This document shows, in pieces, positions 1,426 to 63,604 of a DNA stretch of 64,000 nucleotides. The stretch lies in sequence record LC647030.1. One strand, given 5' to 3'. The notes below the pieces were generated by a model. That model was not told the DNA's origin. It did no database searches and saw nothing but the letters and a program-made list of their open reading frames with translations. A program made the position numbers and the translations under genes. Each line of letters opens with the position of its first letter. Position 1 is the first letter of the stretch. This DNA comes from Staphylococcus phage vB_SsapH-Golestan-100.

Positions 1426-1433
1426 AATAGGTC

Positions 1434-1462: not shown

Positions 1463-1491
1463 TATTACAGTAAGAAGAAAGGAGTGTTGTT

Positions 1492-1986: not shown

Positions 1987-1994
1987 AATAAGGG

Positions 1995-2023
1995 TTGACA
2001 TGCTTAAACAGCTATGTTATACT
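1995..2023 (+). promoter_or_regulatory. consensus sigma70-like promoter (TTGACA-17-TATACT)
   Basis: TTGACA 1995-2000, 17-nt spacer, TATACT 2018-2023. Confidence 0.6.
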
Positions 2024-2068
2024 AAATAAGTAATAAATAATAAAACAAATTAGAGGAGGACATTTAAT

Positions 2069-3247: not shown

Positions 3248-3322
3248 TAGTAACTTTATAAGCTAGGTTATCACCTAGCTTTCATTTTGAATAAATTATA
3301 TAAAAAAAGGAGTTTTATATAC

Positions 3323-4615: not shown

Positions 4616-4943
4616 GTTTGAGCAAGCTGTAGAAGAGTACTTAAAGCAAGAAGGGGTCAACAAGACCCCTATTCCTTATATAGACATTAAACGTAGAATG
4701 CAAGAATGGTTTGAATCAGGAGAACCAATCTTAGTTGAAGATAGTAGTTTCCCTAGTTCTAGCTCCACTAAGATTTATATTAATTATGTAGGAGATAGAT
4801 GGGTTGGAGGATACTCTGAAGTATGGTATTTAGGTGAGGTAGTTAAAGTACCTGAAACTATTCATTACTCAGACCTATATATCACGAACCCTACAATTAA
4901 AAAACGTATCGTACCTGTAAAGGAAAACCCATATGAAGTCTAA
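4596..4943 (+). CDS. hypothetical protein, 115 aa
   Basis: ORF overlapping the recombinase stop; translational coupling likely. Confidence 0.5.
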   Translation: MEAQKTKFEQAVEEYLKQEGVNKTPIPYIDIKRRMQEWFESGEPILVEDSSFPSSSSTKIYINYVGDRWVGGYSEVWYLGEVVKVPETIHYSDLYITNPTIKKRIVPVKENPYEV

Positions 4944-5586
4944 TGGTAATAGATACATTACTGATACAGATGGACTTAATGTTACATTCCAAAGAGACTT
5001 AGATAAACTATATCTTCAGTATGCTAACCTAAGACACGCTATCTATCAACAACACGCTTGGAGATTTGATAACCATGTCAAGAAAGAAGAACTGAGAGAG
5101 TATATAGATGAGCAGTTTATCTTGTTGACTAAGGAATACAATGTTGGTTCTTCTGTAGATTTTCCTGGTTATATAAAAACCAAACTAAGTCTACGTGTAA
5201 AAGAAAGCTATGTAAAGAATAGAGTTAAAAAAGAGCACAATGAATTCTTAGGTAGTAATGATGATTCTATTGAGATGCTAGCAGAAGCTACAGATGACTC
5301 ATTAGAAGATGCAGAGCTCTTTAGTTATGTTATTGAAGAAGGAGAGTTTACTGACCTTCAAAAGTTACTGCTCTCTTATTTAGTTAGTAACAAATACAAA
5401 TTAGAACACCCTAGAATCATATCTATAATTTCTAAGTCAGAAAACATAAATCGTAAAGAAGTTGTAGAGGCTTATAATAGTCTTTATACTTACATTAAAG
5501 ACCGTTGTAAAGAGTTTGAAGCTTTATCTCCAAACCTAGGGATAAATGAAAAGGGTCACGTTAATACTAAGGTAGATAACTTGTAA
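4933..5586 (+). CDS. putative phage sigma-factor-like protein, 217 aa
   Basis: Position after the recombinase matches Twort-like phages; region-2-like aromatic/basic segment; no definitive motif. Confidence 0.4.
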   Translation: MKSNGNRYITDTDGLNVTFQRDLDKLYLQYANLRHAIYQQHAWRFDNHVKKEELREYIDEQFILLTKEYNVGSSVDFPGYIKTKLSLRVKESYVKNRVKKEHNEFLGSNDDSIEMLAEATDDSLEDAELFSYVIEEGEFTDLQKLLLSYLVSNKYKLEHPRIISIISKSENINRKEVVEAYNSLYTYIKDRCKEFEALSPNLGINEKGHVNTKVDNL

Positions 5587-5677
5587 CTACCTTACCCTTT
5601 CTGCTATATTGTCTATAAGCCTTACTACAGTAGTGCTATATTAATTTTGAAAACAAATACAGAAAGGGGAATTTTTC

Positions 5678-6022
5678 GTGGGAACTCCTATTGATAAAGA
5701 CCAAGCAACAGCAAAATTAGATACAGTTGAGGTTTATGTACCAGGCGCTAAAGAGACTAGAATTAACTTTCTACAATTTACACCATTAGTAGTAGCTATT
5801 ATTACATTACTAAACATGGTTTATACATCTATTACTGGTAATTCACTATTAGGTATTTCAGATGATGAATTAGCTTCATATGTAAACTTAATTATCTCAA
5901 CTATTGCAATTGCTGTTACAGCATATAAAAACCTTAACATCACTAAAGGCGGACGTGCTAGAGCAGAAGTTGCTAAGCAGGCTATACCCGATAAAAAAAA
6001 GTACAAACAGCAAAATAAATAA
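5678..6022 (+). CDS. small membrane protein, 114 aa (GTG start)
   Basis: Two predicted TM helices; AAAGGGGA RBS. Confidence 0.55.
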   Translation: MGTPIDKDQATAKLDTVEVYVPGAKETRINFLQFTPLVVAIITLLNMVYTSITGNSLLGISDDELASYVNLIISTIAIAVTAYKNLNITKGGRARAEVAKQAIPDKKKYKQQNK

Positions 6023-6052
6023 AATATATACATAAGAGAGGATTGAAAGTCT

Positions 6053-6898
6053 ATGGCAGTTGAATCAAAAGACATTCTTGAAATCATCAAAGAGAAAGCC
6101 CCAGCTATTGATAACACATATTTACAAGTAAAGACAACACCTGATGGTTACACAGGAACTTATGAAGGGTTCTATTCTTACCTAGTTCAAAAAGATGGAG
6201 AAGAGTATGGTGTTTACCCTATTGAAACTACAGGAGCTAATGAGCTTAAAGTGTTTAAGAAATCTCCAATTATCATGACAGATGGAGAGGAAGTACACTT
6301 TGTAGTTAGTACTATGGATGACCCATTCCAACATCCTATCATTAAACAAGAGAGTGTTGGCAAGCAAACAAAAGAACATGCTGTACTTCAAGCATTCTTA
6401 GCTTTTGCTAGCTCACGTTTCTCTATGACAGTTTACCACATTATGATTGCTGACGGTGAAGGTAGCTTCTCTTCAGTAGCTAATGCAGATGCTTTTGGTA
6501 ACTTAGTAGAAACTAACGCTCAAGCTTCAGAAGAAATTGTTAAAGGTAAATTCGATAAGAACGCACACGTGCAAGAAGTAGCATTTGATAAAGAGTCTGT
6601 TGAATTAAATATTGGTGAGACAGAACAAATCTTAACGCTTATTACACCTACTTATGCTTCTAATAAAGATGTTGTACTAACATCTTCTAGAGAGACAGTA
6701 GCTAAGATTAACAGTACAGGTCTTATTACAGCTGTAGCAGAAGGTGAAGCAACTATCACTGTTACAACAGCTGATGGTAAATTACGTGCTAAAGCTACAG
6801 TAACAGTAAAGCCTAGCACAGGTAGTCAAGAGCCTGAAGCACCTACAAATGTGAAAGTAGACGCACAAGAAACAAGCGCTAACGTATCAGCAGAATAG
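6053..6898 (+). CDS. Ig-like (Big_2) domain protein, probable virion decoration/adhesin
   Basis: C-terminal Big_2-like segment ...TAVAEGEATITVTTADGKLRAKATVTV. Confidence 0.75.
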   Translation: MAVESKDILEIIKEKAPAIDNTYLQVKTTPDGYTGTYEGFYSYLVQKDGEEYGVYPIETTGANELKVFKKSPIIMTDGEEVHFVVSTMDDPFQHPIIKQESVGKQTKEHAVLQAFLAFASSRFSMTVYHIMIADGEGSFSSVANADAFGNLVETNAQASEEIVKGKFDKNAHVQEVAFDKESVELNIGETEQILTLITPTYASNKDVVLTSSRETVAKINSTGLITAVAEGEATITVTTADGKLRAKATVTVKPSTGSQEPEAPTNVKVDAQETSANVSAE

Positions 6899-6966
6899 GT
6901 AGCATATAACAGCAGGGGCAACTCTGCTGATTATAAATATTTTAAAACAACTGGAGAGATGTACAA

Positions 6967-7488
6967 ATGGCAAACAAACTAAACTTGTATAAGGGAACCG
7001 AACTAGTAAAATCTGTAGATGCAAACCAAGAAGGTGCTACTGAAGTGCTTATCGAAGGGTTAAAGTCTAATACAAACTTTGCTAAAGGTGACTATAAGGT
7101 TTCTTTCAGCAATGATAGTGGTGAGTCTAATAAAGTAGATGTCCCAAGCTTCAAGACTTTAGCTATTTTAGTATCAGCTATTCAAGTAACTAATGCAACG
7201 GAAGCCTTAGAAGTCGGGGGCACAGCAACAATTAGTGCTTCAGTAACTCCTGAGAATGCTTCTGATAAGACTTTAGTATTTGTCTCAAACAATGAAGAGG
7301 TAGCAACAGTTGATGGCAGTGGTAAGATTACTGCTGTAGGTGAAGGTAGTACAAAAATTTCAGTAGCATCTAATGATGGTAATGCTTCTTCAGAAGTAAC
7401 AGTAAATGTAACTGTACCAGCACCATCAGAACCTGCTAATGTAACTGTAACACCAGCAGAAGAGTCAGCTACAATTTCAGTAGACTAA
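6967..7488 (+). CDS. FN3-like N-terminal domain plus Big_2 Ig-like domain protein
   Basis: Big_2 signature KITAVGEGSTKISVASNDGNASSEVTVNV; N-terminal ~65 aa is paralogous to 7508..7732 and to the N-terminus of 15553..17238. Confidence 0.75.
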   Translation: MANKLNLYKGTELVKSVDANQEGATEVLIEGLKSNTNFAKGDYKVSFSNDSGESNKVDVPSFKTLAILVSAIQVTNATEALEVGGTATISASVTPENASDKTLVFVSNNEEVATVDGSGKITAVGEGSTKISVASNDGNASSEVTVNVTVPAPSEPANVTVTPAEESATISVD

Positions 7489-7507
7489 TAGGAAGGATGA
7501 TTAACTA

Positions 7508-7732
7508 ATGGCTAAAACATTAAAAGTATACAAGAAATCAGGAGAGGAAGTTGCTCAACAAGAAGTTAGTGGCACAGGAGCTACCACAGTAGAGATTACT
7601 GGGCTTACAGCAGGCACTGACTATGCAGAAGGTGATTTCCAAGTATCCTTCACAGATGGTTCTAAGGAATCTAAAAAAGTAGATGTACCTGCATTTACAA
7701 CAAATGCTTCAGAACCAACAGAAGGAGCTTAG
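7508..7732 (+). CDS. stand-alone FN3-like domain protein, 74 aa (paralog of the 6967 N-terminal domain)
   Basis: Conserved ...EGDFQVSFTDGSKESKKVDVPAFTT, as in the neighbouring gene. Confidence 0.6.
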   Translation: MAKTLKVYKKSGEEVAQQEVSGTGATTVEITGLTAGTDYAEGDFQVSFTDGSKESKKVDVPAFTTNASEPTEGA

Positions 7733-7738
7733 TAGATA

Positions 7739-7771
7739 GACTAGGATTAATTTCCTAGTCTTTTTTTTTTT
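7739..7771 (+). terminator. rho-independent terminator
   Basis: Stem gactagga / tcctagtc, loop ttaatt, then T11 (followed by A8). Confidence 0.7.
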
Positions 7772-7794
7772 AAAAAAAATATCCGCTTCTATGC

Positions 7795-7824
7795 TTGACA
7801 GCTATGAAGCGGTTATGATATACT
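7795..7824 (+). promoter_or_regulatory. sigma70-like promoter (TTGACA-18-TATACT) embedded in a ccgcttc/gaagcgg inverted repeat
   Basis: TTGACA 7795-7800; TATACT 7819-7824; IR arms at 7783-7789 and 7807-7813 flank the -35. Confidence 0.55.
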
Positions 7825-7852
7825 AAGTATATACCAATTAGGAGGAGATATT

Positions 7853-8098
7853 ATGAGTAACGTATTTGCACAAGAACAATTTATTGACCGTTTAGAACAA
7901 GAAGGATTAGAAGTAGTAGAAGAGGATAGCTATTACACAGTAGAAGATGTAGAAGGTCATATTGCTATTGTAGACTTTGTAGGTGACATAGTAAACGTTT
8001 CTGATAATGAAGGGGTTAGAGTATCACATAACGTTGACCAAATCTACTTAGCGTTCTATGCAGTGATGGACGCACTGGATTATGAATTTGATGAATAA
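7853..8098 (+). CDS. hypothetical acidic protein, 81 aa
   Basis: AATTAGGAGGAG RBS. Confidence 0.6.
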   Translation: MSNVFAQEQFIDRLEQEGLEVVEEDSYYTVEDVEGHIAIVDFVGDIVNVSDNEGVRVSHNVDQIYLAFYAVMDALDYEFDE

Positions 8099-8103
8099 AG
8101 TTC

Positions 8104-8132
8104 TTGACACCACTCAAGGACTTTAGTATAAT
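8104..8132 (+). promoter_or_regulatory. consensus promoter (TTGACA-17-TATAAT)
   Basis: TTGACA 8104-8109, TATAAT 8127-8132. Confidence 0.6.
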
Positions 8133-8162
8133 AGTATTATAATCAATTAGGAGGAATTAGTT

Positions 8163-8585
8163 ATGAAATTACTAAAACAGATTATTAAGGTATTAGATGA
8201 GAGAGGTATTCAAGTAAATAACTTAAACATAGACGATGTGGTTAATGGAGAGTACGGAATTGAAATCAACAAAGAAATCACTATTGTCCATAGAGAAGGT
8301 TTGTATTATGCACTATATACGGAAGATGCTAGCTTAGAGGAGACATATTACAGTTCTCTAACAGAAGCATTAGAAAAGGTAGCTGACTATTTAAGTAGAG
8401 TAAAGGAAGGCTCTATCGTAAAATCTTTTCTTGGTGTATTCACATATAAAGTTATCAAACACAACAGTAAAGATTTGTATAACTTACTAAATGTAGATGA
8501 CAACACCCTATTATATACAGAGTGTGAAAGTATGGACTCTATTCAAGACAAGATTAACAGAGGTCAGTTTTATGCAGAACAATAA
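8163..8585 (+). CDS. hypothetical protein, 140 aa
   Basis: AATTAGGAGGAA RBS. Confidence 0.65.
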   Translation: MKLLKQIIKVLDERGIQVNNLNIDDVVNGEYGIEINKEITIVHREGLYYALYTEDASLEETYYSSLTEALEKVADYLSRVKEGSIVKSFLGVFTYKVIKHNSKDLYNLLNVDDNTLLYTECESMDSIQDKINRGQFYAEQ

Positions 8586-8904
8586 ATGGTACGCACTATG
8601 TGAATATAAAGGTAAAGGGAAGAATAAAAAGCCTTATCAAGTCCAAGCCTCTACAAGTAAAGAAAAGCTTTTAGATAGAAAGGATAGTTTAGAGTTAGAG
8701 TATCCTGATAGAGAATATGCAATAAAGTTAACAACAACCTTTGACAAAGAAAGAAAGTGGAGCGGGCTTAATCCGCTTCTCTTACTTAGAGTATATAAGC
8801 AATTGTATATTGTAAGTAGGAGTGATGACCCTACTAGATTAAATGTTGCATATAGCCTTCTGTTCACACAGAGGGTTTTTTATTTAAATGTTGACAGGAT
8901 TTAA
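8572..8904 (+). CDS. hypothetical protein, ~110 aa (uncertain; 3' end runs through a terminator hairpin and the next promoter)
   Basis: ATG at 8572 with an AGAGG RBS; the ORF track version starts at 8497 inside the previous gene. Confidence 0.3.
   Translation: MQNNKWYALCEYKGKGKNKKPYQVQASTSKEKLLDRKDSLELEYPDREYAIKLTTTFDKERKWSGLNPLLLLRVYKQLYIVSRSDDPTRLNVAYSLLFTQRVFYLNVDRI
8856..8884 (+). terminator. rho-independent terminator
   Basis: Stem ccttctg / cagaggg (one mismatch) followed by T7. Confidence 0.5.
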
Positions 8905-8919
8905 GTAGTGTGATATAGT
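8891..8919 (+). promoter_or_regulatory. promoter (TTGACA-17-TATAGT)
   Basis: TTGACA 8891-8896, TATAGT 8914-8919. Confidence 0.55.
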
Positions 8920-8949
8920 TAGTATATAAATTAATTAGGAGGAAAAGTA

Positions 8950-9135
8950 ATGGAGAATAGAGACATTATCAGTAACATATTAACAGAGTTAGAGTACATT
9001 GATACTAGTGAACTAAACCATAAACAACAAATGATGGTAGCTAGAGTAGAATCATTGTTAGATGACTTAGCATGGGAATTACAAGAAGAGGAAGCGGTTG
9101 AGTTTATGAAACAAATCAATGAGGAGGAAAAGTAA
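8950..9135 (+). CDS. hypothetical acidic protein, 61 aa
   Basis: AATTAGGAGGAAAAG RBS. Confidence 0.55.
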   Translation: MENRDIISNILTELEYIDTSELNHKQQMMVARVESLLDDLAWELQEEEAVEFMKQINEEEK

Positions 9136-10538
9136 TGAAACTATATTTAAACAGTAATATCGCAGAAGGAACACCTGAAGAGTTAGTAACTTATAAAGAA
9201 CTATTAAAGGAGAGAGGCCTAGACTCTGAGAAGTCATTGTTCCACTTTGGACATATGCATCAACCAACTGAAGAGGAAGCGGATGAACAAGAAGTAGATA
9301 ATTCTGTATATGATAAAGGAGCTTTCTATACAGTAACTGAGGAGGCTGAGGACTCACCATTACCTGTAGGGGCTATTCTCCAACATCTACACGGTAGAAT
9401 ATTCAGTGACTCTAAAGGACAACAATGTATCATCTCTAGACCATCTTTTGTAGATAGAGGTAATACACATTGGTTTGATGATAGTATTAACCAAGACCGT
9501 TTTGAACTAGCTAAACAATTAGGTATCCAACTAACGGACACTACAGACCTAGCACAAGCAACTGAAGGTAAGTACTTCAAAGTAACAGAAGAGCACTCAG
9601 ACTTAAGTGTAGGAGACCTTGTTACGATTGCTGAGGATGATAGAGATAACCTACCTCAGTGTAAGGATAAGCATGGTAACTTCTATTATGTATACCTAGG
9701 TGACCTAGAGCTAGTAGAAGATAACTCAGAATCAACTCTAAGCTCTACAGATGAAGCGGAAACCCCTTCTACAGAACTTAAAGTAGGAGATAGAGTAAAA
9801 GTATTAAAGAGTGAAGGAGGAGCTGTAGGAGAGGCTACTGTAACTGCTGTACTAGAAGATGGTGATGTAAGATTAGAAGGCAAGAGTGATAGTGGTGTGT
9901 ACTCATATAGATGGAGTAACAATATTTCAAACTTAGAGAAGGTTAAAGAAAAACCTGCATCCTTTGGGGCAATACAAGCTAAAGCCTACTTAGAGGATAA
10001 GTCAATAGACCAAGTAATTGAAGAAGTACAAAGCAAACACAAGCAAGAGTCTGATAATGCAAGAGTAGAGGAAGAAATCTATGCCTATTATGAAGTTGTA
10101 GACCCTGATGTATTTGCTAGTAGTGTAGAGAAAGGGACTGTATTCAAGGTGATAGGAAATACTTATACTCTACTAAACCAAGAAGGTAAGGACAGAGAAT
10201 ATATTAACGTAGTTACTTCTACAGGATTGACTCAAACAAGCCCTCTGAGAGATAGTGTGATTAAACCTATCATTAATGATTCATTCATTGCAGAACGCTT
10301 CAAGTTTGCTAAAGAAGTAGGCATTGTGCTTGCAGTAGATACAGACTTTGAGGAAGAGTGTAAAGACCACCACTTTAAGGTTACAGAGGAGGAACCACTC
10401 TCTAACTTTACCCCTACAGACATTCTAACTGTCCGTAGAGACGATAACACTAATGCTATTGCTTTCCAAGACCGTAATGGCAAGACACAGTATACACTAC
10501 TGGTAGATGTAAGAGAGATTGCTAGACCAAGTAAATAA
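9135..10538 (+). CDS. acidic protein, 467 aa, with an internal ~50-aa duplicated domain
   Basis: Two copies of ...GI.L..DTD....K.FKVTEE....L....D.T..DD (residues ~125-170 and ~385-430). Confidence 0.7.
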   Translation: MKLYLNSNIAEGTPEELVTYKELLKERGLDSEKSLFHFGHMHQPTEEEADEQEVDNSVYDKGAFYTVTEEAEDSPLPVGAILQHLHGRIFSDSKGQQCIISRPSFVDRGNTHWFDDSINQDRFELAKQLGIQLTDTTDLAQATEGKYFKVTEEHSDLSVGDLVTIAEDDRDNLPQCKDKHGNFYYVYLGDLELVEDNSESTLSSTDEAETPSTELKVGDRVKVLKSEGGAVGEATVTAVLEDGDVRLEGKSDSGVYSYRWSNNISNLEKVKEKPASFGAIQAKAYLEDKSIDQVIEEVQSKHKQESDNARVEEEIYAYYEVVDPDVFASSVEKGTVFKVIGNTYTLLNQEGKDREYINVVTSTGLTQTSPLRDSVIKPIINDSFIAERFKFAKEVGIVLAVDTDFEEECKDHHFKVTEEEPLSNFTPTDILTVRRDDNTNAIAFQDRNGKTQYTLLVDVREIARPSK

Positions 10539-10548
10539 ATAACCATCG

Positions 10549-10584
10549 ACCGCTTCTAGATAGATAAAGAAGCGGTTCTTTTAT
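10549..10584 (+). terminator. rho-independent terminator (accgcttc / gaagcggt stem)
   Basis: 8-bp stem, 12-nt loop, T-rich tail. Confidence 0.6.
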
Positions 10585-10693
10585 GTTTGAGTAACATAAT
10601 TTAAGATGCTGTCATACCAAGGTTTAAGTAAGGTTATTACAAGGCTTAAGTAAGAAAAAATAGAGTAAATCCTATATTTGAGTAACAAAGTGT

Positions 10694-10722
10694 TTGACAG
10701 CCCCTCTATTATATGTTATCAT
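10694..10722 (+). promoter_or_regulatory. promoter (TTGACA-17-TATCAT)
   Basis: TTGACA 10694-10699. Confidence 0.45.
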
Positions 10723-10752
10723 TAGGTATAGTCAATTAGAGGAGGAATTAAT

Positions 10753-11091
10753 ATGAGAATGGTTAGTATATATGAGTATTTCAAAGACAAGGAAGGACAA
10801 CGGTTGAGTGTAGGAGATAATAAAGAGGTACTGTTCAACTCAGTACGTTACCACGGTTCTGAAGAGGAGTTGGCTTTATACTTTAAGTATAAGGAGTACC
10901 CAATAGCAATAAGAGTAGATAAACCTCAAGCAGATTTAAGATTACGATTAAACAAGAAGATAACAGGGCTACAAAAGGATACCTTTACCCCTGTAGAGAA
11001 CCTAGACTCAACCTTATTAACCTATCTAGGTAAGTTTGCAGAAGAGATGGAAGAAAAAGTAGAGTATAAACTATTTGATTGGAGGAATTAA
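10753..11091 (+). CDS. hypothetical protein, 112 aa
   Basis: TAGAGGAGGAATTAAT RBS. Confidence 0.65.
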   Translation: MRMVSIYEYFKDKEGQRLSVGDNKEVLFNSVRYHGSEEELALYFKYKEYPIAIRVDKPQADLRLRLNKKITGLQKDTFTPVENLDSTLLTYLGKFAEEMEEKVEYKLFDWRN

Positions 11092-11092
11092 T

Positions 11093-11194
11093 ATGGTTAC
11101 AGTAGGAGCGTTATTTACAGGATTCTTTGTAGTCCTTGTAATAGGTATAATGATAGCAGGACTCGTTACACTAGTAATAGATAACAAGAAGTAA
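11093..11194 (+). CDS. 33-aa hydrophobic peptide (not in the ORF track)
   Basis: GGAGGAATTA RBS then ATG; MVTVGALFTGFFVVLVIGIMIAGLVTLVIDNKK; TAATATG overlap with the upstream gene. Confidence 0.45.
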   Translation: MVTVGALFTGFFVVLVIGIMIAGLVTLVIDNKK

Positions 11195-11217
11195 ATAAGA
11201 GAAGCGGAGGAGATATA

Positions 11218-11445
11218 ATGAGTTTAGTAACAGTAATAGTATTAACTGTAGTCATAGCCATGTTGTTAGGCTTAATAGCAAGTAAACTAATATTGTGGTT
11301 TGTAGATGCTTGTCAAAGGGATGAGAACAATATAACAGAGATTAGAGTAGTATTAACCCTATTAATAGTCAGCTTAGGAGTAGACCTAGCCTTTGCTGTT
11401 GATGGAGCAGTAAGAATACAAAATAGAATCCTATACTTTTTGTAG
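11218..11445 (+). CDS. small membrane protein, 75 aa
   Basis: GGAGGAGATATA RBS; two TM helices. Confidence 0.6.
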   Translation: MSLVTVIVLTVVIAMLLGLIASKLILWFVDACQRDENNITEIRVVLTLLIVSLGVDLAFAVDGAVRIQNRILYFL

Positions 11446-11454
11446 ATAGAAGCG

Positions 11455-11479
11455 GAGACCTTTACGGTCTCTTTTTTTT
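11455..11479 (+). terminator. rho-independent terminator
   Basis: gagacc-tttac-ggtctc followed by T8. Confidence 0.65.
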
Positions 11480-11519
11480 GTCTATAATAGCTTGACAAAT
11501 AGGGTGAAGTATGCTTTAT

Positions 11520-11850
11520 TGACAAAGGCGTAATAGTGTGGTAGTGGAGGGTAGAGGTTGAATAGTAGTGACATGGAGGCTGATAGATAGAGTCGAAGTC
11601 GGTTAGCGTGCTTGGGGCTTCCTCTATTCTTTTACCATTTGTTTATTTCCTTCCTCTACTATTCCTCCCTTTGATTGGCTGATTAATTGTTTGGTTGTTT
11701 CTCTATTACTCTTCCCTTCCTTACTCCCTATGCTATTGTCCCTCTATTGTTTTCCTACTCCTCCATTACTCTACTCCTATATAATAAAAGGCAATAGAGC
11801 TATTACCCTACTGCCTTTATACTTACTATTGTTATTACTATTATTATACT
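11520..11850. repeat. noncoding strand-asymmetric region (G/A-rich head, then a CT-rich body with degenerate CCTCTATTNNT direct repeats)
   Basis: cctctattct, cctctactatt, ctctattact, cctctattgt, ctccattact, ctactcctat; sits at the convergence of the + and - gene blocks. Confidence 0.4.
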
Positions 11851-12843
11851 CTACATGTTAAGTAACTTACGAGCCCAATCAGGAGAATTATCACAAAACG
11901 CTTTAACTTCTTCTATGTTATTTATAACCCCTTTTTGAATCTTGTAGATATACACAAAGTATTTAGTTATGAAAGCTTGGAAAGGTTCATACCTATTACC
12001 CTCTATAAACTCATACTGCATCTCTTCTGATAATAAATTTATCTCTGTAAAGAATGTATTATACATAGTATCAAATAAGCAAGGTATATCCTTACTATAC
12101 TCACTTAGTAATAGTATTCTTTCCTCATGACTTAGCGATACATCAAAATCAATAATACTTTTAATAGTTTTAGGTAATGAGTCGTAGTCTAGTAGTATAG
12201 ATAATAGTTCTTTCTTATTAAATATAAGGTTGAGTTTCTTGTATGCGACTATAAAGTCTTCTTTGACTACCTTTTTATCTACTAAGTCTTGTAATTTACT
12301 GTAATAGTTTTTAATTTGTTTATTCATATTAACCTTAGTAAATGCTGTCTCTAGATTATAAAATTCTTGTATAGAACTACTCTCTATATTAACACCTAAC
12401 TTATGTTTAAGCCATTTTGATTCTAGCTCAGATAGTCTACGTTCATAGATAGATTCATCTTTTGTTTCTATATGGTCTCCATGTATAGAGTCATAGTATA
12501 CAGCATCAATTATATAAGTATCAGCATTATCAAATCCGTATTTATCTAAGGCTTTTTTAAGTAGTTTACCACTACCCTTATACTTTGAATCGGGCTTTCC
12601 TTTATGTTTCCCTATATATGCTCTACCTGATTGTTTAAACACTGTTATATAGACATAACCATACATATGTTCTGAAAGTTTTTCAGACTGACCTCTTACG
12701 CTATGACCAAAAGTAAAAACATAGCTATAATGTTTTAATCTTCCTTTTCTACATTCTGATTGTACAATGTTATTTCTAACGTCTCTTACTTGAATTTCAC
12801 CTAAACCTTCTTGGTATACAAAATTATTTATTTTTTCTGTCAT
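11851..12843 (-). CDS. GIY-YIG family homing endonuclease (free-standing)
   Basis: GYVYITVF...YIGKHKG...GSGKLL motifs; start placed at MTEKINN (AAGGAG RBS); a 17-bp palindrome atatactactagtatat lies just upstream. Confidence 0.8.
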   Translation of the reverse strand: MTEKINNFVYQEGLGEIQVRDVRNNIVQSECRKGRLKHYSYVFTFGHSVRGQSEKLSEHMYGYVYITVFKQSGRAYIGKHKGKPDSKYKGSGKLLKKALDKYGFDNADTYIIDAVYYDSIHGDHIETKDESIYERRLSELESKWLKHKLGVNIESSSIQEFYNLETAFTKVNMNKQIKNYYSKLQDLVDKKVVKEDFIVAYKKLNLIFNKKELLSILLDYDSLPKTIKSIIDFDVSLSHEERILLLSEYSKDIPCLFDTMYNTFFTEINLLSEEMQYEFIEGNRYEPFQAFITKYFVYIYKIQKGVINNIEEVKAFCDNSPDWARKLLNM

Positions 12844-26842: not shown

Positions 26843-26864
26843 TTTTTTTTTTTTTTTTTTGACA
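26843..26864 (+). promoter_or_regulatory. T18 homopolymer immediately abutting a TTGACA -35 box (divergent promoter region)
   Basis: T18 at 26843-26860 running into TTGACA 26859-26864; the -10 is weak or unclear. Confidence 0.35.
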
Positions 26865-41125: not shown

Positions 41126-41605
41126 GTGAAAAGCAAAAAGGACATAAGAAAAATAAAAAAAGAACATAAACGCTTAGAGAAGGAAAGAAAATCAAGATAC
41201 CATTCCGAGTTTAAGGAAAGAGGCTCTCACATGCTTTGGCTTATTAATGAAGTCATAGATAAGGCGCTAGAGTCTAATGATTATACAGGTAATGGTAAGG
41301 AAATAAACATTACTAAACTATCTTCAAAATCCAAACCAGGTACTCTTACTACAGAGGTAGATAACAAAGACATATATTATGAGTTAGATTATCTATATAC
41401 GTTAACAGTATACTTAGAATTACCAATAGACTATAGACTATACAACTCTATAAAACTAAAATACAAAGATGTGAAGTATAAGGTTACTCACTTAGAAAAG
41501 GTAGGAGACCGTATTATAATGGAATTAAAGGTCAAAAATGATGAGCGCAATATTAATAACATCACATTATCTATTAACGACCATATGTTTATAAACTTAA
41601 AATAG
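41126..41605 (+). CDS. hypothetical protein with basic N-terminus, 159 aa (GTG start)
   Basis: TAAGGAGG RBS. Confidence 0.55.
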   Translation: MKSKKDIRKIKKEHKRLEKERKSRYHSEFKERGSHMLWLINEVIDKALESNDYTGNGKEINITKLSSKSKPGTLTTEVDNKDIYYELDYLYTLTVYLELPIDYRLYNSIKLKYKDVKYKVTHLEKVGDRIIMELKVKNDERNINNITLSINDHMFINLK

Positions 41606-41618
41606 GAGGAGAATTATA

Positions 41619-41924
41619 ATGACAAATAACTATGTATACGTATTAAAGAGCACGATAAGCATGTATGAGGTACCAACAATTGATGGTATCTTTGATAATA
41701 AAGAGGACTTAGTAAAAGTAATGAAGGAGCTTAATATCAAGAAGAGAGAAGAAGTTAGAAACGGGGAACCTAATCTTATCTACTATACGGTTGATGACTA
41801 CATTAAACAAACTTACAAAGAAGAGACTGTAAAACGTTATTACTTTGTCCACAAGGTTCCCTTAAATCATTACGATTGGTTTTTAGATAACAGGTATTCA
41901 GAAACTACTGATTTAGACATTTAA
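41619..41924 (+). CDS. hypothetical protein, 101 aa
   Basis: ATAGGAGGAGAATTATA RBS. Confidence 0.55.
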   Translation: MTNNYVYVLKSTISMYEVPTIDGIFDNKEDLVKVMKELNIKKREEVRNGEPNLIYYTVDDYIKQTYKEETVKRYYFVHKVPLNHYDWFLDNRYSETTDLDI

Positions 41925-41933
41925 TAGTAAGCT

Positions 41934-41970
41934 AGAGTATAGGTATATATACCTATACTCTATTTTTGTT
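41934..41970 (+). terminator. rho-independent terminator with a perfect 14-bp stem
   Basis: agagtataggtata / tatacctatactct, then a T-rich tail. Confidence 0.7.
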
Positions 41971-41989
41971 TATAGTCTGAGTAGGATAG

Positions 41990-42480
41990 GGCTATACTAC
42001 CACTCCCACTACCACTCCTGAAACAGCTCTTTTTAGGGTAAAAAAATTTTGGCGGTGATTTTTATTTTATATAAAATATAATAAATTCTAAAATTATTAA
42101 TTATAAAAGTAAGGGGTGGTGGGGTATACCTAGATTATGATAGAGGAGGGGTATAGTTAGGTAGGAGATAGGGGTGGTAGGGGTACAGTAGGGGTAGGAA
42201 GTGTTTTGTGAAACGGTACAAAAAAATTGGGGGTGAAAGTTGGGAAAAATTTTAGTAGCCTGGGGTAGCCCCGTAACCCCTCATGCATACCCCCTTTTAT
42301 GGATTTCAAATAAGGGGTGCTTATCCCTTGACTTCTATTAATAAATGTGCTCCCGACCTCATCCACAGATTGCCCCCACTGTCAAGCATTAATTTAATAT
42401 TGCCCCAGCACTCATAAACTATTATTTGTGTTTGCTTCAATCTATTTAATTATCTGTTTAGCCTTCAGCAAACACAAAGA
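41990..42480. repeat. noncoding G-tract/C-tract repeat region (G-quadruplex-prone) bordering the GC-richer cassette
   Basis: ccactcccactaccactcc at ~42000 opposes ggggtggtgggg, gaggagggg, ggggtggtaggggtacagtaggggtagg at 42110-42200; further G-runs ggggtagccccgtaacccc. Confidence 0.4.
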
Positions 42481-42506
42481 AGGACAAGACCAGCTGGTCT
42501 TGTCCT
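42481..42506 (-). terminator. palindromic hairpin terminator for the minus-strand acidic gene
   Basis: aggacaagacc-agct-ggtcttgtcct (perfect 11-bp stem), 13 nt downstream of the stop at 42519. Confidence 0.5.
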
Positions 42507-42518
42507 CTTCTCTCTTTC

Positions 42519-43634
42519 TTATCTGTTTATTTGGTCTATAATCTCCCCATCTTTGATGATGATAAACATGTAATCAGTTTCTACGATTGTGTGACCATCA
42601 ACAAGATAATAATTTTTGTTTACTTCTTGCTGAGCCTCTCTAAAATAGCGCTTAGACTTGAACAGTGTTATAGTTCCATACTCAGTATTTAATGCTGTGC
42701 TAACTGGTGTTACTGCTCGAACGTCTGTAATGCCCACAGACACCCCAAAGTCGTCCATAATAGCGCCTGCATACCCTAAGGCCTGCAAGTCGTAAAGAAC
42801 CTGTACGCTGTCGTCCTGTTGTGATAGAACGTCCTCTGCCTGCTCCTCCTCTATCATGTCGATGGCCTCACCAACTGTCAGAGGTTCCTCCTCTTCTTCT
42901 GTGTCTATCTCTTCGAGTTCATCTTGAAGCATTCTAGCTTCATACTCGAAGATAGCCCACGCAAGATAGTTCTTGTCCTGCGTTGTTAGTTCTAGAGGGT
43001 CGGCCTCATACATGCAGATGCTTTCTGCTTCTAATTCTATGGCCTCCTCCTGCTCTATGTCGTCCATGTCGTCCCAGTCGTCCCCGTAGTAGTCTATAAC
43101 GTTATCTTGTGCTATCTCTCTTATCTTTTCCTCCGCTTCCTGGTGTCTATCGTCTGCGCTATCTACTGGGAACATATCCGACAAGTCCTGAATACCGTCC
43201 CAGCTCTCCAGCTCCTCAATTCCGTAGACCTCAGTTACAAAGTTTTTTATTTCTTCCTCGTGCTCCTCGTAGTATGCCTTTGTGTCCTTGTAATAGATTA
43301 AGTGATTAACCATGCCCGATTCACAGCCATGGCTCACAATGTCATCAAGTAAGCCCTCAGCATCTTCTGAGTCTTGAGACATCTCTAATAAGTAGTTAGC
43401 TACATCTCTTTTTACATCATTGTCGATATATAAGAATGTGCCGAAGTAGTTAACTATAAAAGTATCTTTGATGGCTTCTGTGATTTGCTCTTGTGTCATC
43501 TCTATAAATGCATCTGTTGTGTTCTCTACTTCATCCGATAGGTTGAAGCGGTTAACTAAATATCTTGTATCTGCTTTGTCTGAATATGCTTTTGTGAATG
43601 CCTCTAAATTAGTGTTTGTTTTTAAATTTTTCAT
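42519..43634 (-). CDS. hyper-acidic protein, 371 aa (DNA-mimic/anti-restriction candidate)
   Basis: Very high D/E content (runs EEIDTEEEEEP, DDWDDMDDIEQEE); GC-richer codon usage than the flanks. Confidence 0.7.
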   Translation of the reverse strand: MKNLKTNTNLEAFTKAYSDKADTRYLVNRFNLSDEVENTTDAFIEMTQEQITEAIKDTFIVNYFGTFLYIDNDVKRDVANYLLEMSQDSEDAEGLLDDIVSHGCESGMVNHLIYYKDTKAYYEEHEEEIKNFVTEVYGIEELESWDGIQDLSDMFPVDSADDRHQEAEEKIREIAQDNVIDYYGDDWDDMDDIEQEEAIELEAESICMYEADPLELTTQDKNYLAWAIFEYEARMLQDELEEIDTEEEEEPLTVGEAIDMIEEEQAEDVLSQQDDSVQVLYDLQALGYAGAIMDDFGVSVGITDVRAVTPVSTALNTEYGTITLFKSKRYFREAQQEVNKNYYLVDGHTIVETDYMFIIIKDGEIIDQINR

Positions 43635-43683
43635 TTTTTAATATCCTTCCGAGCGTTTGCGCTCTTGTTATTTGGTATGCCTA

Positions 43684-43713
43684 ATTATAGCATTAATAAT
43701 TAAAATCTGTAAA
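43684..43713 (-). promoter_or_regulatory. repeated early-type promoter (TTTACA-18-TATAAT) plus conserved 5'UTR hairpin, copy a
   Basis: Minus strand TTTACAgattttaattattaatgcTATAAT, then gagcg-caaa-cgctc hairpin and GGAAGGATATTAAAAAATG. Confidence 0.5.
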
Positions 43714-43751
43714 GCGATAAGCCCCAATTAAAAGGGCAATTTTACACCCCT

Positions 43752-43892
43752 TTAGATTTTACGTAATACAACGTTTAACGCTCCAAAACCTTCAATTGCT
43801 TTATGGTAAAACTCTTGTGCACTCTCAACATTATCAAAGTAAAGTACAATGTTATCTGCTTGGTGTTCGATTCCTATTGATATCATAAACAT
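43752..43892 (-). CDS. 46-aa ORF (not in the ORF track)
   Basis: AAGGAGGGctaaacATG; MFMISIGIEHQADNIVLYFDNVESAQEFYHKAIEGFGALNVVLRKI. Confidence 0.35.
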   Translation of the reverse strand: MFMISIGIEHQADNIVLYFDNVESAQEFYHKAIEGFGALNVVLRKI

Positions 43893-43912
43893 GTTTAGCC
43901 CTCCTTTAATTA

Positions 43913-44194
43913 TTAAACTTCATAGTTGAATAGGTAAGCGTCCACCTCATCCAACCACTCAAAAGATTTATATTGTTCTGTGTCCCAATCCTCAAAACCT
44001 AATTGCTCGAATGTGCCCCACTGCGTAGTAAATAAGTGCCCCACCGTGTCCCCTGCAAGTCTCACAAGCACGTTGTTATTCTCTTTTAGAAACTCGTAGG
44101 AGTTGCCTCTAAACGTTTGACTGATTGCTTGCCCGTTCTCTAATCCCTGCATTACCTCGATTAATCTTGTGTTATCGTTGTTATAAATTTTCAT
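43913..44194 (-). CDS. hypothetical protein (~93 aa; start at MKIYNND)
   Basis: AAAGGAGttttaaaaATG. Confidence 0.55.
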   Translation of the reverse strand: MKIYNNDNTRLIEVMQGLENGQAISQTFRGNSYEFLKENNNVLVRLAGDTVGHLFTTQWGTFEQLGFEDWDTEQYKSFEWLDEVDAYLFNYEV

Positions 44195-44296
44195 TTTTAA
44201 AACTCCTTTTAAATATCTGTAGTAGTGATTTTTAATCACTCTATAGAGCCACCAGCAACGCTTAAGGCTTGCTGGTAGTTCTAACAATGATTAAGC

Positions 44297-44635
44297 TTAA
44301 ATAACTTCTACAGTGTCCACCTGCTTGAAATAGGCTTGCTGTTCTGTTGTTACGTCCTGGCCTACCGTTTTTAAAATGTAGCTTGTTTCTGGCACGTGCT
44401 GAAGCATTCCCGTGCGCTGGTGTGCAATGTGCCAAAAGTTCGGAGTGTAACGGTCGATGTCGTCAAACAAGATTTCAATTATTCTATGGTCTTCCGTTCT
44501 CATTCCATCGTAGAACATCCCACTTATTAAAGTACCATCAGACATGATATAAATTGCTTCTGCTAGGCTCTCTGTAGTCTCTACGCCCTCAGCCTCGAAC
44601 ATTTCAATAATTTGATTGTTAGTTAATTTTTTCAT
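44297..44635 (-). CDS. hypothetical acidic protein, 112 aa
   Basis: ORF in the GC-richer cassette. Confidence 0.6.
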   Translation of the reverse strand: MKKLTNNQIIEMFEAEGVETTESLAEAIYIMSDGTLISGMFYDGMRTEDHRIIEILFDDIDRYTPNFWHIAHQRTGMLQHVPETSYILKTVGQDVTTEQQAYFKQVDTVEVI

Positions 44636-44655
44636 TTTTTAATATCTCCTTTTAT

Positions 44656-44862
44656 TTAAACAATTTTGTAAAAACTTTTACCCTCTTTAAGTTCCCTTAA
44701 GTCTAAATGGTCGATTAAACTATAAACGTCTTCACTGTTATAATTATCTTCAAAATCTTCAAGGTTTTCAAAATCTGTAATATCTAGCCATATTTGAAAG
44801 TCACTATTTTTTAATTGTACTTGCTTTAATTCCTCATTGTGTGTATTAAATGTAATTTTCAT
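44656..44862 (-). CDS. hypothetical acidic protein, 68 aa
   Basis: Preceded by the repeated promoter/UTR element. Confidence 0.55.
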   Translation of the reverse strand: MKITFNTHNEELKQVQLKNSDFQIWLDITDFENLEDFEDNYNSEDVYSLIDHLDLRELKEGKSFYKIV

Positions 44863-44898
44863 TTTTTAATATCCTTTCGAGCTCCTGCTCTGTTATTT

Positions 44899-44928
44899 GG
44901 TATACCTAATTATAGCATTAATAGTTAA
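44899..44928 (-). promoter_or_regulatory. repeated early-type promoter plus 5'UTR hairpin, copy b
   Basis: TTTACAgaatttaactattaatgcTATAAT; gagc-agga-gctc hairpin; GGATATTAAAAAATG. Confidence 0.5.
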
Positions 44929-44952
44929 ATTCTGTAAAGCGATATGCTTAAA

Positions 44953-45180
44953 TTATTTTGAATATCTAACGATTTTATTTGCTTTCATAAATGCGACATC
45001 CTGACGATATTTTGATAACTCTGCTTGCCATTTTGCTAACTCTTTTTCATGTATGTTAATTATGTCTTGGCAATCTATACCATCATTCAAGTACCCGTTA
45101 AATTGTTTTACTGTTGCTCTAGAATAGTTTACTTTTCCTCTGATTCCGATTAGGTTTAAAGTTGTTGTAATTTTTTTCAT
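44953..45180 (-). CDS. hypothetical basic protein, 75 aa
   Basis: Preceded by copy c of the promoter/UTR element. Confidence 0.55.
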   Translation of the reverse strand: MKKITTTLNLIGIRGKVNYSRATVKQFNGYLNDGIDCQDIINIHEKELAKWQAELSKYRQDVAFMKANKIVRYSK

Positions 45181-45229
45181 TTTTTAATATCTCCTTTGCC
45201 TCGTTGGGCTTGTTTTATTTGGTATAACT

Positions 45230-45259
45230 AATGTACCATATTAAGTTAAATTCTGTAAA
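45230..45259 (-). promoter_or_regulatory. repeated promoter/UTR element, copy c (weaker -10 TACATT)
   Basis: TTTACAgaatttaacttaatatggTACATT...GGAGATATTAAAAAATG. Confidence 0.4.
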
Positions 45260-45281
45260 GCGATATGACTAAATTTGTTAA

Positions 45282-45329
45282 TTTTTTTTTTTTTTTTTTT
45301 TTGACTTTTTATCAAGAGTGTGATATAGT
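45282..45329 (+). promoter_or_regulatory. T21 homopolymer fused to a consensus promoter (TTGACT-17-TATAGT) for the downstream plus-strand block
   Basis: T-run 45282-45302 overlaps TTGACT 45301-45306; TATAGT 45324-45329. Confidence 0.5.
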
Positions 45330-45359
45330 AGATACATATGAAGGAGGAGTATGTAAAAT

Positions 45360-45860
45360 ATGAAAACAGTAAACCAAAAAGACATGGCAATACTCTGTAG
45401 TTTACACTATGAATGGTTAGATAGTAATGGTAAATCAGGAGAGAGATTAGACTTAAGAAATAAAAAGCTAGAAAATGTAACGCTAATTAATAAAGATTTA
45501 GAAGAAGCTTCATTTAGGGGTTGTATATTTAAGCACTGTAGAATAGAGGATAATAACTTTGAGTATGCAGACTTCTCTTCTACACTATTCTTAGATGATT
45601 GTGAGATAAGTGGTAATGACTTTACAGAAGCTCATATCACTAACTTAGAAGGTATAGAGCTCTATTCAGTAGATAATATAGGGACATATTGGGGGAAGGC
45701 TACCTATAATGTGACAGAGGATACCGTATTTGCAGGATGTTGGAAAGGTTCCCTTGAAGATTTCTTAAAAATAGGGCTTGACAGAAATAAAGGTAACATG
45801 GTAGAATGTAATAAGATACAAAAAACTTATGAATTTTTTAATAGTCTAGAGGAGGAATAA
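45360..45860 (+). CDS. pentapeptide-repeat protein (Qnr/MfpA-like DNA-mimic fold), 166 aa
   Basis: About 15 consecutive A(D/N)(L/F)xx-type pentads: ASFRG CIFKH CRIED NNFEY ADFSS TLFLD DCEIS GNDFT EAHIT NLEGI. Confidence 0.75.
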   Translation: MKTVNQKDMAILCSLHYEWLDSNGKSGERLDLRNKKLENVTLINKDLEEASFRGCIFKHCRIEDNNFEYADFSSTLFLDDCEISGNDFTEAHITNLEGIELYSVDNIGTYWGKATYNVTEDTVFAGCWKGSLEDFLKIGLDRNKGNMVECNKIQKTYEFFNSLEEE

Positions 45861-61939: not shown

Positions 61940-62503
61940 ATGATAATCAAATGTGTAGATGATAATGAAACATGGGTAAAGATAAACTATATCAATAGTA
62001 AAAGACCTGACAAGATATACTTAATATCTGACTTAGGTAGGTTAATGGAATATGACCCACAGAAAGAACCTAAACCATTTACTGTAAAAGTTGATACAGC
62101 TAAAAATATAGGGCTTATTAATAAGGACGGGTATAAAGAGTATTCAATAGGTGGTAAGATGTTTAAGGTACATCGCTTAGTAGCTACCTACTTCATAGAG
62201 GACAACTTATACTCTGCCTTACAGGTTCACCATATTAATGGAGTTCCTGATGATAATAGAGCTGTGAATCTACAGTGGGTTACAGCACAAGAGCATGTAG
62301 CTATAGAGATGGCTGAAGGGAAGCGGAAAAGCATACTAGAACTAAGCCCTCATCAACGTAAGTATAGCTGGAAAGACATATGTGCTATGCGATTCCTTCA
62401 TGAAGGTCAAGGTTGGTCTATGAACCAAATAGCTGGACTGTACGATATGCCTTACGGTTCTATGAAGCAAATACTTCAATATAAATCTTACAAGAGACCT
62501 TAA
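61940..62503 (+). CDS. HNH homing endonuclease (free-standing)
   Basis: HHINGVPDDNRAVNLQWVTAQEH (HNH motif); AAGGGGGAATTTAGT RBS. Confidence 0.8.
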   Translation: MIIKCVDDNETWVKINYINSKRPDKIYLISDLGRLMEYDPQKEPKPFTVKVDTAKNIGLINKDGYKEYSIGGKMFKVHRLVATYFIEDNLYSALQVHHINGVPDDNRAVNLQWVTAQEHVAIEMAEGKRKSILELSPHQRKYSWKDICAMRFLHEGQGWSMNQIAGLYDMPYGSMKQILQYKSYKRP

Positions 62504-62892: not shown

Positions 62893-63111
62893 TTACATGT
62901 GTTTCATAGCGTGCGCCATGAGTTGCTCACGTGTGAGCTTCTCGAAGCCTTCATATGTCATTCTTGCAACCGTTGGGTCTGTTTGGTTCAAGAATTCGTA
63001 AACTTCCTTAACTGGGACAAGTCTGTCATGCTTTGCTAAGTACTTAGCAACCTTTCTTTCTACGTGCTGTGCTGTGCTTTCCCCTTTATCGAAGTTCATT
63101 GTTGGTTTCAT
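62893..63111 (-). CDS. hypothetical protein, 72 aa, in a GC-richer segment
   Basis: Preceded by the conserved gagc-ccagga-gctc 5'UTR hairpin and GGATATGAGAACATG start context; followed by gggctc-caaaa-gagccc hairpin. Confidence 0.6.
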   Translation of the reverse strand: MKPTMNFDKGESTAQHVERKVAKYLAKHDRLVPVKEVYEFLNQTDPTVARMTYEGFEKLTREQLMAHAMKHM

Positions 63112-63120
63112 GTTCTCATA

Positions 63121-63150
63121 TCCTTTCGAGCTCCTGGGCTCTTGTTTTTT
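63121..63150 (-). promoter_or_regulatory. fourth copy of the conserved 5'UTR hairpin/RBS element (promoter part diverged)
   Basis: aacaagagcccaggagctcgaaaggatatgagaacATG matches copies a-c at 43.6, 44.9 and 45.2 kb. Confidence 0.4.
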
Positions 63151-63604
63151 GTGTTGCTGTTCTTGACACTCTTAATACTAAAGCATTAGCAACCATATTG
63201 CAAGCATTAATTTTGATTATTTCATCAAAAAGCCCCCAAACCCTTGTGGCTCTAAGGAAAAAAGTTTTTAAATAAATTACTGCAAGCTAGTTTCTACCAT
63301 ATAAAGGGAATAAAAAGGATTTACCCCCAGCAAGAAGAAAGCACGGTTTAAAATCGCAGTTAGTGAGTGCTGGGGCAAATGATAAACAAAAAACATACTA
63401 AATAGTAGCAAAGTCGATCGACTTCTAAAATTTAAAAATCGCATTCTCTAGATCATTCGCACCCACCTTCAAAATTTGCCCTTATATAGAAGGAAAAAGT
63501 TTTTTAAACAAATTTGAGTATATGGGTTGTATTATGGTTCGATTTGTTATATATTAGAACCAAGCCAAATAAGGCAACCAAAAAACCTAAAGGAGTTTTT
63601 CATT

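Follow-up and report, generated by a model that had tools for sequence, protein, structure and literature searches.

The genome of Staphylococcus phage vB_SsapH-Golestan-100 (LC647030.1) carries six minus-strand open reading frames (ORFs) of 75, 68, 112, 93, 46 and 371 amino acids (aa) between positions 42519 and 45180 of the 64,000-nucleotide stretch analysed here (hereafter the window). Three of them are each preceded by the same promoter and hairpin-bearing leader. An initial annotation, made from the letters alone, read this block as an acquired host-takeover or anti-defence island with expression signals of its own, which raises the question of whether it is an island at all and what its repeated element does. 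Judged by its sequence, the window belongs to a Twort-like (Twortvirinae) staphylococcal myovirus. We are fairly confident that the block is a segment from the inner edge of the long terminal repeat (LTR) of this phage, with small Tre-type early genes arranged in three units, each led by the repeated module. The element is real and conserved, and the block represents a known arrangement in a form specific to this lineage, rather than a new kind of island.

A repeated promoter/leader module

Three full copies of the module, each about 95 nt long, end at the ATGs at 45180, 44862 and 43634, the same starts for which a shared element had been proposed. The 18-mer TCGCTTTACAGAWTTTAA occurs three times, where 0.01 occurrences are expected. 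An nhmmer profile built from the copies finds all three at E values of 1e-19 to 1e-25 and nothing comparable elsewhere in the window, and no other dispersed repeat in a self-comparison of the 64 kb exceeds 30 nt. In copies 2 and 3, the promoter is followed by TAGG(T/C)ATACCAAATAAC, a GC hairpin and then GGATATTAAAAAATG. The conserved leader after the -10 box reads (T/C)ATACCAAATAA and leads into the hairpin, a Shine-Dalgarno sequence and an A-rich spacer. The ribosome-binding site (RBS) string given by the initial annotation, GGA(T/G)ATATT, was a misreading; the actual letters are GGATATT or GGAGATATT.

All copies lie on the minus strand. Copy 1 (45178-45275; ATG at 45180) has the -35 box TTTACA at 45254-45259, the -10 box TACATT at 45230-45235, the leader TATACCAAATAA at 45215-45226, the 3-bp hairpin GCCcaacgaGGC (GCC/GGC) at 45198-45209 and the Shine-Dalgarno sequence AAAGGAG, and its leader folds at -3.8 kcal/mol. 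In copy 2 (44860-44955; ATG at 44862), the -35 box is at 44933-44938, the -10 box TATAAT at 44909-44914, the leader at 44893-44904 and the hairpin GAGCaggaGCTC at 44879-44890, with the Shine-Dalgarno sequence GAAAGGA and a fold of -5.2 kcal/mol. Copy 3 (43632-43730; ATG at 43634; nhmmer E 2e-25) has its -35 box at 43708-43713, the -10 box TATAAT at 43684-43689, the leader CATACCAAATAA at 43668-43679, the 5-bp hairpin GAGCGcaaaCGCTC at 43651-43664 and the Shine-Dalgarno sequence GGAAGGA, and folds at -7.2 kcal/mol (z -2.7). The promoter ascribed to every copy, TTTACA-18-TATAAT, was found by a promoter scan in copies 2 and 3, with TG and 11 of 12 consensus positions, but not in copy 1, where TACATT with a TG extension brings the match to 9 of 12. 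By consensus match, the module promoters would be of the host sigma-A type, with both a -35 and a -10 box.

A fourth copy had been placed at 63111. The partial copy there (63112-63141, minus strand, before a 72-aa gene) does contain the hairpin GAGCccaggaGCTC (63128-63141) and the Shine-Dalgarno sequence GAAAGGA, but these make up all of the roughly 25 nt that it has in common with the module (nhmmer E 0.07; covariance model 42 bits), and its promoter is a different one, with TTGCAA (63198-63203) and TAGTAT (63175-63180) separated by a 17-nt spacer. This promoter is common to siphovirus SA2, at about 80% identity. In SA2 (3100-3160), an alternating purine-pyrimidine run (CGCGCGCGTACGTGTGTGTGTGCGTGTGTGCG) lies just upstream of the corresponding promoter. 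A separate 26-nt repeat covering the RBS and first codons (AAAGGAGATATTAAAAAATGAAAAAA) is identical at 44627-44652, in the 112-aa gene, and 45172-45197, in the 75-aa gene; the 112-aa gene has no promoter copy despite sharing this segment.

The module is conserved in related phages, which bears out the claim that the block has modular expression signals of its own. The nearest records, S2G3 and Fi4S2, are 93-96% identical to the window at the nucleotide level and contain two copies per repeat, and the module also recurs in all 8 independent metagenome contigs. In these relatives, it always precedes the gene for a DUF7222 protein, the 371-aa product in the window, and usually precedes the first small gene. 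A blastn search of the module against 50,697 phage records returned only S2G3 and Fi4S2 above noise. An exact 17-mer scan of IMG/VR for TAGGTATACCAAATAAC gave 11 single matches, which we judged to be chance.

The block probably lies at the inner edge of a terminal repeat

The direct LTR of S2G3 is 12,469 bp long (1-12469 = 141324-153792), with 0 mismatches between its copies. Homologues of the cassette are the first genes of S2G3, at 256-1966 (= 141579-143289), and thus lie within the LTR. The 75-aa gene at the head of the block (44953-45180, minus strand) encodes a basic protein (isoelectric point, pI, 9.8) that matches phrog_3837 at 3e-17. By tblastn, it has counterparts in 139 Staphylococcus phages, including the Kayvirus Staph1N, where the protein is annotated TreO and encoded in the left terminal repeat; the two proteins have the same N-terminus, MKKITTTLNLIG, and about 39% identity. 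The other five cassette genes gave no match to a named Tre gene. In Kayvirus, terminal-repeat genes are transcribed first, within 2 min, from conserved sigma-70-like promoters (PMC9241854, PMC11598898), and late promoters have no -35 box (PMC9241854, PMC11598898, PMC6445280). The LTR placement in S2G3, the TreO homologue and these transcription data uphold the early, host-takeover-type gene position that had been suggested for the block.

The repeat boundary can be predicted from two relatives. Position 1 of S2G3 corresponds to window position 42263, and the annotated left terminal repeat of Staph1N ends between TCTACC and CAGGTAC, likewise in a G-tract-rich spacer. The conserved non-coding G/C-tract region at 41963-42479 therefore appears to hold the terminal-repeat boundary, which we predict between 42262 and 42263, at the junction of GGCTACCC and CAGGCTAC (42255-42270, minus strand). 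A boundary motif, CTACC(C) directly followed by CAGG(C)TAC, is common to the start of the S2G3 record and the end of the Staph1N left repeat (8440-8465), and may be the site where termini are generated. The GGGG/CCCC cluster at 41900-42600 is the sole such cluster in the window, its counterpart is by far the largest in S2G3, and the non-coding region of about 600 bp is strongly conserved in nine loci.

In both Staph1N and the window, the repeat genes converge on the adjacent genome arm. A conserved, perfect 30-bp palindrome (41933-41962), terminator-like on both strands, ends the converging plus-strand gene block. An intrinsic terminator with a 12-bp stem (42480-42507), which also reads on both strands, closes the DUF7222 transcription unit, and in the alignment its stem varies with compensation among relatives. 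An RNA gene in the conserved G-tract region was considered and is unsupported, as the covariation term from RNAalifold was only -0.77. The sequence GTGCTGGGGC was unconvincing as a boundary motif, with 3 matches against 0.46 expected. As a separate observation, GAGTGCTGGGGCAA motifs at 42402-42411 on the minus strand and at 63367-63376 on the plus strand form an inverted pair. With the genes in native order, this pair would enclose the entire minus-strand early block, although with 3 occurrences against 0.46 expected this may be chance.

The native order differs from that of the deposited sequence. Golestan-100 was assembled from short reads, and its paper is silent on terminal repeats and promoters (PMC11951804). 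Compared with S2G3, the window consists of six blocks in altered order and orientation, and relative to S2G3 and Fi4S2 their five junctions fall at 7768, 26843-26860, 45282-45302, 59139 and 62606. Each of them coincides with a run of T or A, and the S2G3 counterparts of these runs are shorter. The T18 at 26843-26860 corresponds to T9 at both S2G3 partner sites, and the T21 at 45282-45302 (plus strand) to T9 and T8; these two are the sole runs of at least 15 T's in the window. The T21 tract joins two blocks that are not adjacent in any relative. Around the cassette at least, the gene order in the 8 metagenome contigs is that of S2G3, running from the repeat genes through an HNH endonuclease gene, a 115-aa gene, the 72-aa gene and the cassette to the converging arm; in contigs L017-L027, the cassette is joined instead to the block with the 72-aa gene. 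Because the T21 junction is absent from all relatives found and the contigs keep the S2G3 order, the T21 tract is probably an assembly mis-join, a unique rearrangement being far less likely. Mis-joins probably account for all five junctions in the deposited short-read assembly.

In the native order, the cassette is immediately preceded, on its own strand, by the block with the copy at 63111. The 72-aa gene concerned (62893-63111, minus strand; phrog_31914) occupies this position in all relatives. The bounds given for the cassette exist as sequence features, but the T21 tract is a block junction and the G-tract region a repeat boundary. In the LTR-equivalent block adjoining that of the 72-aa gene, an HNH_3 homing-endonuclease gene (61940-62503, plus strand) lies between two repeat blocks. 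It occurs in most of the metagenome contigs and not in S2G3, and parallels TreM, which lies in the Kayvirus LTR. The first promoter of the Staph1N repeat (425-470), upstream of treA, has a homologue in a further terminal-repeat promoter of the window at 7786-7845 (plus strand). The -35 box TTGACA of the window promoter is flanked by the inverted repeat CCGCTTC/GAAGCGG, which could be an operator or a structured element.

Variable genes between module copies

The small-gene families between the copies (F5, which is TreO-like, F11, F9, F1, F6, F4, F10 and F13) occur in varying combinations, and differences in gene content start and end at modules in 9 loci. None of these families occurs in contig L027 between module and DUF7222 gene. 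In contig L021, one promoter has been lost between AAATAA microhomologies, with the hairpin and Shine-Dalgarno sequence retained. The relatives may differ in the small genes between copies because the repeated modules serve as crossover points.

The leader hairpin

The 5' UTR fold suggested by the initial annotation was recovered in all leaders folded: in 17 of 17, the hairpin is the minimum-energy structure and the only one predicted, and the Shine-Dalgarno sequence is unpaired. Three sequence designs occur at the same place, namely GAGC(G)/(C)GCTC, GGGC/GCCC and GCC/GGC. Pairs were counted on a covariance-model alignment of 27 distinct leaders; a MAFFT alignment was dropped for this purpose, as its stems were out of register. 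In the counted alignment, 91.9% of cells pair, compared with 41% or less in slid controls, and three of the five pairs are changed on both sides. The covariation score was 0.126 against 0.046 for shuffles, and none of 500 shuffles reached the observed value. Several loops contain AGGAG, and no U-tract follows the hairpin on the sense strand. An Rfam search of 41500-45600 yielded no match at the gathering score and two chance-level matches (E about 0.4).

In the treN promoter of Kayvirus (Staph1N 5734-5800, compared with window 44893-44908), the -10 box is likewise followed by the leader sequence GGTATACCAAAT, suggesting that the leader is older than the hairpin. On a rival view, the module copies arose by recent duplication or gene conversion of one promoter region, and the hairpin is incidental and without function. 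In favour of this view, identity between copies 2 and 3 is 88% over 92 nt, promoter spacer included; the hairpin is short and weak, and it is missing from those Kayvirus LTR promoters that have a related leader. However, all three sequence types (GAGC/GCTC, GGGC/GCCC and GCC/GGC) pair at the same place, and the hairpin is a GC-rich patch within a leader otherwise rich in AT. Its link to the RBS also persists where the module promoter has been lost, as in contig L021, or is different, as before the 72-aa gene. Taken together, the evidence leaves recent duplication with an idle hairpin as a doubtful contender.

Genes of the block and their composition

Downstream of the TreO homologue, the 68-aa product (44656-44862) is an acidic ORFan (pI 4.4) that belongs to no family and occurs in the window only among the loci compared. 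The acidic 112-aa protein (44297-44635) belongs to phrog_20607, with homologues near the genome ends of Sepunavirus and of the Lactobacillus Herelleviridae phage LP65, and in a 90-kb siphovirus. The gene for the acidic 93-aa protein (43913-44194) is 88.7% identical at the nucleotide level to a gene of siphovirus SA2 (Sextaecvirus); both this gene and the DUF7222 domain are shared with Sextaecvirus siphoviruses, and in SA2 the two lie within a block annotated with TreP. The 46-aa ORF (43752-43892) represents family F6, found in 3 loci, and is followed by a terminator-like hairpin, AAAGGG...CCCTTTT (43730-43753), which was read from the sequence because its loop is too long for the terminator scan. 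A strong hairpin, ACCAGCAA...TTGCTGGT, lies between the 112- and 93-aa genes (44251-44276, minus strand) with no T-tract after it, and is possibly a processing or attenuation site inside the operon. All of these ORFs, like the 371-aa one, are on the minus strand.

The 371-aa protein (42519-43634) has a pI of 4.05, 25% Asp+Glu and a net charge of -69. It consists of an N-terminal extension, the DUF7222 domain at residues 83-242, a poly-acidic linker and a small C-terminal beta domain. Its match to Pfam DUF7222 (PF23864) scores 60.5 bits (E 2e-16), above the gathering cut-off of 27, and the conserved motifs are HGCxSGxVxxLIY and DKNYLAWAIFE. The predicted structure shows a helical, confidently modelled core. 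A family profile found no PDB sequence match below E 0.1, and a fold search gave no match either. DUF7222 relatives were not found in 185,579 bacterial and archaeal genomes, IMG/VR contained one weak C-terminal match only, and a literature search on DUF7222 returned no papers.

The initial annotation had described the cassette genes as GC-richer than the rest. Over 126 crude ORFs of the window, the mean GC content at third codon positions (GC3) is 0.28 with a standard deviation of 0.064. Recalculation confirmed the claim for the 371-aa (0.46), 93-aa (0.46-0.50) and 112-aa (0.45) genes, which at 0.45-0.50 lie about 2.7 to 2.9 standard deviations above the mean, but not for the 75-, 68- and 46-aa genes, which at 0.22-0.26 (0.22 for the 68-aa gene) are ordinary. 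With the neighbouring 72-aa gene (0.48), four genes are GC-rich, and both their G-ending and C-ending codons are raised. GAG accounts for 57% in these genes, compared with a background value of 36% and with 14% in a relative's major capsid gene, and CAG for 52% against 22% (Fisher p about 4e-4 for each). Translational selection for high GC3 was rejected, since G-ending codons are raised alongside C-ending ones, whereas the capsid gene avoids them; the bias is thus compositional. We propose that the GC-rich genes come from a gene pool common to virulent staphylococcal phages of different families.

These features are also what speaks for a recently acquired, foreign anti-defence island bounded by the G-tracts and the T21 tract. 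The four GC-rich genes have raised GAG and CAG, the 93-aa gene and DUF7222 reach into Sextaecvirus, and the charge of the DUF7222 protein is reminiscent of DNA-mimic anti-restriction proteins. Nevertheless, S2G3, Fi4S2 and the 8 independent contigs all have the block in an unchanged position and order, and it runs on into the other terminal-repeat genes without a break. The composition of three of the six genes is ordinary, and one of the three is the native Tre-family TreO. The supposed bounds are a junction absent from relatives and a repeat boundary rather than an insertion scar. The cassette proteins matched no anti-defence or defence family, PDB entry or fold, and no relative was found in the bacterial genomes. 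We therefore regard a foreign island as unlikely, and the notion of a discrete, recently acquired unit, put forward in the initial annotation, is abandoned in favour of a terminal-repeat segment found at the same place in every relative.

Proposed expression of the block

If the block is a terminal-repeat early gene cluster, the first promoter (P1) would drive the 75-aa gene. P2 would drive the 68-, 112-, 93- and 46-aa genes, with transcription ending at the terminator-like hairpin at 43730-43753, and P3 would drive the DUF7222 gene up to the 12-bp-stem terminator at 42480-42507. Each module would then comprise a host sigma-A promoter, the initial transcribed sequence AUACCAAAUAA, a GC hairpin of 3-5 bp, a free Shine-Dalgarno sequence and an A-rich spacer. 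Host RNA polymerase may fire these promoters immediately after DNA entry, giving immediate-early expression of the block. The hairpin beside the RBS would act on the mRNA, most likely by impeding 5'-to-3' decay and by insulating the Shine-Dalgarno sequence so that it stays open. Hairpin-based post-transcriptional control, as first suggested, is plausible on these grounds. The acidic proteins may have a takeover or counter-defence role.

Several points weigh against this interpretation. The window's own assembly contains no duplicated repeat, and LTR membership comes by homology from relatives, just as expression timing comes from Kayvirus and not from this lineage. The promoter spacer is 18 bp, and the -35 box matches at 5 of 6 positions only. 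Energies of -3.3 to -7.4 kcal/mol (z -0.5 to -2.7) make for a weak hairpin, and its distance of about 13-16 nt from the predicted 5' end is not that of a classical 5'-terminal stabiliser. The hairpin also has no G-U pairs, so that RNA and DNA, and the two strands, are indistinguishable. Because the pair-count alignment was fitted to the structure and only about three hairpin designs are independent, the data lend moderate support to pairing being conserved while the hairpin sequence changes. Finally, the module crossovers were read from gene maps and not observed as events.

The hairpin and Shine-Dalgarno sequence might instead be a portable control element for a phage factor, or part of a cassette like the PeSLs (promoter-early/stem-loop cassettes) that moves ORFans together with a promoter; we consider this rather improbable. 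If it were true, a phage factor might shut off or process early mRNAs, ORFans would move between staphylococcal myoviruses and the large Sextaecvirus siphoviruses, and the very acidic DUF7222 protein would represent a novel factor for early takeover or counter-defence. Least probable, and in our view hardly tenable, is action on the opposite strand or on DNA, as a weak antisense terminator or a protein-binding palindrome that shuts off early transcription: on the plus strand the hairpin is followed by TTGTTATTTGG and a terminator scan lists GAGCGTTTGCGCTC and TTGTTATTTG, the lack of G-U pairs leaves the strand unfixed, and the palindrome GGTATACC overlaps the predicted start site, but the stem is only 3-5 bp, the loops differ in sequence and length, the copies do not preserve the left half of GGTATACC, and the strong two-way terminators at 42480-42507 and 41933-41962 already isolate the cassette.

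Read as a terminal-repeat early gene cluster, this unannotated block, from a therapeutic-type Staphylococcus phage that has been little described, falls into a known compartment. This reading predicts a terminal-repeat boundary in LC647030.1 and flags probable mis-joins in the deposited assembly. The compact, conserved promoter/leader/hairpin/RBS unit is a possible expression part for staphylococci, and the DUF7222 protein becomes an early-gene candidate for a takeover or counter-defence role.

Comparison with known systems

The block most directly recalls the Tre region of Kayvirus (phage K, Staph1N and 812). Common to both are small LTR genes, mostly unknown, near a G-tract boundary at CTACC and CAGG, a TreO homologue, an HNH endonuclease gene, repeated sigma-A promoters with the leader GGTATACCAAAT, and convergence of the repeat genes on the adjacent genome arm. 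The genus is different, however, TreO is only about 39% identical, and the repeat is 12.5 kb in the window's relative S2G3 compared with 8.5 kb in Kayvirus. The DUF7222 gene and the leader GC hairpin were not seen in the Staph1N LTR examined.

A Bacillus phage offers a more distant parallel. SPO1 reportedly has a host-takeover module in its terminal redundancy, described by Stewart et al. in 1998. It resembles the block in having small early genes in a terminal repeat, short operons, and a strong host-type promoter and RBS. It differs in functions such as gp44 and gp56, which have no identified counterparts here.

The hairpin invites comparison with the 5' mRNA stabilisers of Firmicutes, such as the STAB-SD of cryIIIA, the SP82 polypurine stabiliser and the aprE leader hairpin. 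Like these, the leaders have a structured or Shine-Dalgarno-like element that could halt decay in the 5'-to-3' direction, with AGGAG in several loops, but the hairpin is not at the very 5' end. Ocr and ArdA are DNA-mimic anti-restriction proteins, and the 371-aa protein is likewise very acidic (net charge -69), encoded in a terminal repeat and preceded by an early-type promoter. It is much larger, with several domains, and no sequence or fold similarity to them was found.

The arrangement of the module finally resembles the PeSLs of T4-like phages, in which a repeated sigma-70-type early promoter is combined with a GC stem-loop, a Shine-Dalgarno sequence and a start codon (PMC2839356, PMC4122927). 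PeSL stem-loops are effective terminators located within or just around the promoter (PMC2839356, PMC4122927). Unlike them, the hairpin described here has 3-5 bp, lies in the transcribed leader downstream of the promoter and lacks a U-tract, and so does not qualify as a terminator; host and phage family are also unrelated. In both systems, however, a repeated promoter, stem-loop and Shine-Dalgarno sequence stand before ORFans in a variable (hyperplastic) region, and when close relatives are compared, it is at these units that insertions, deletions and replacements start and stop. In PeSLs, recombination between copies also yields mini-circles. The variable cargo suggests that promoter-mediated shuffling of the T4 kind also shapes the terminal repeats of Twort-like phages.

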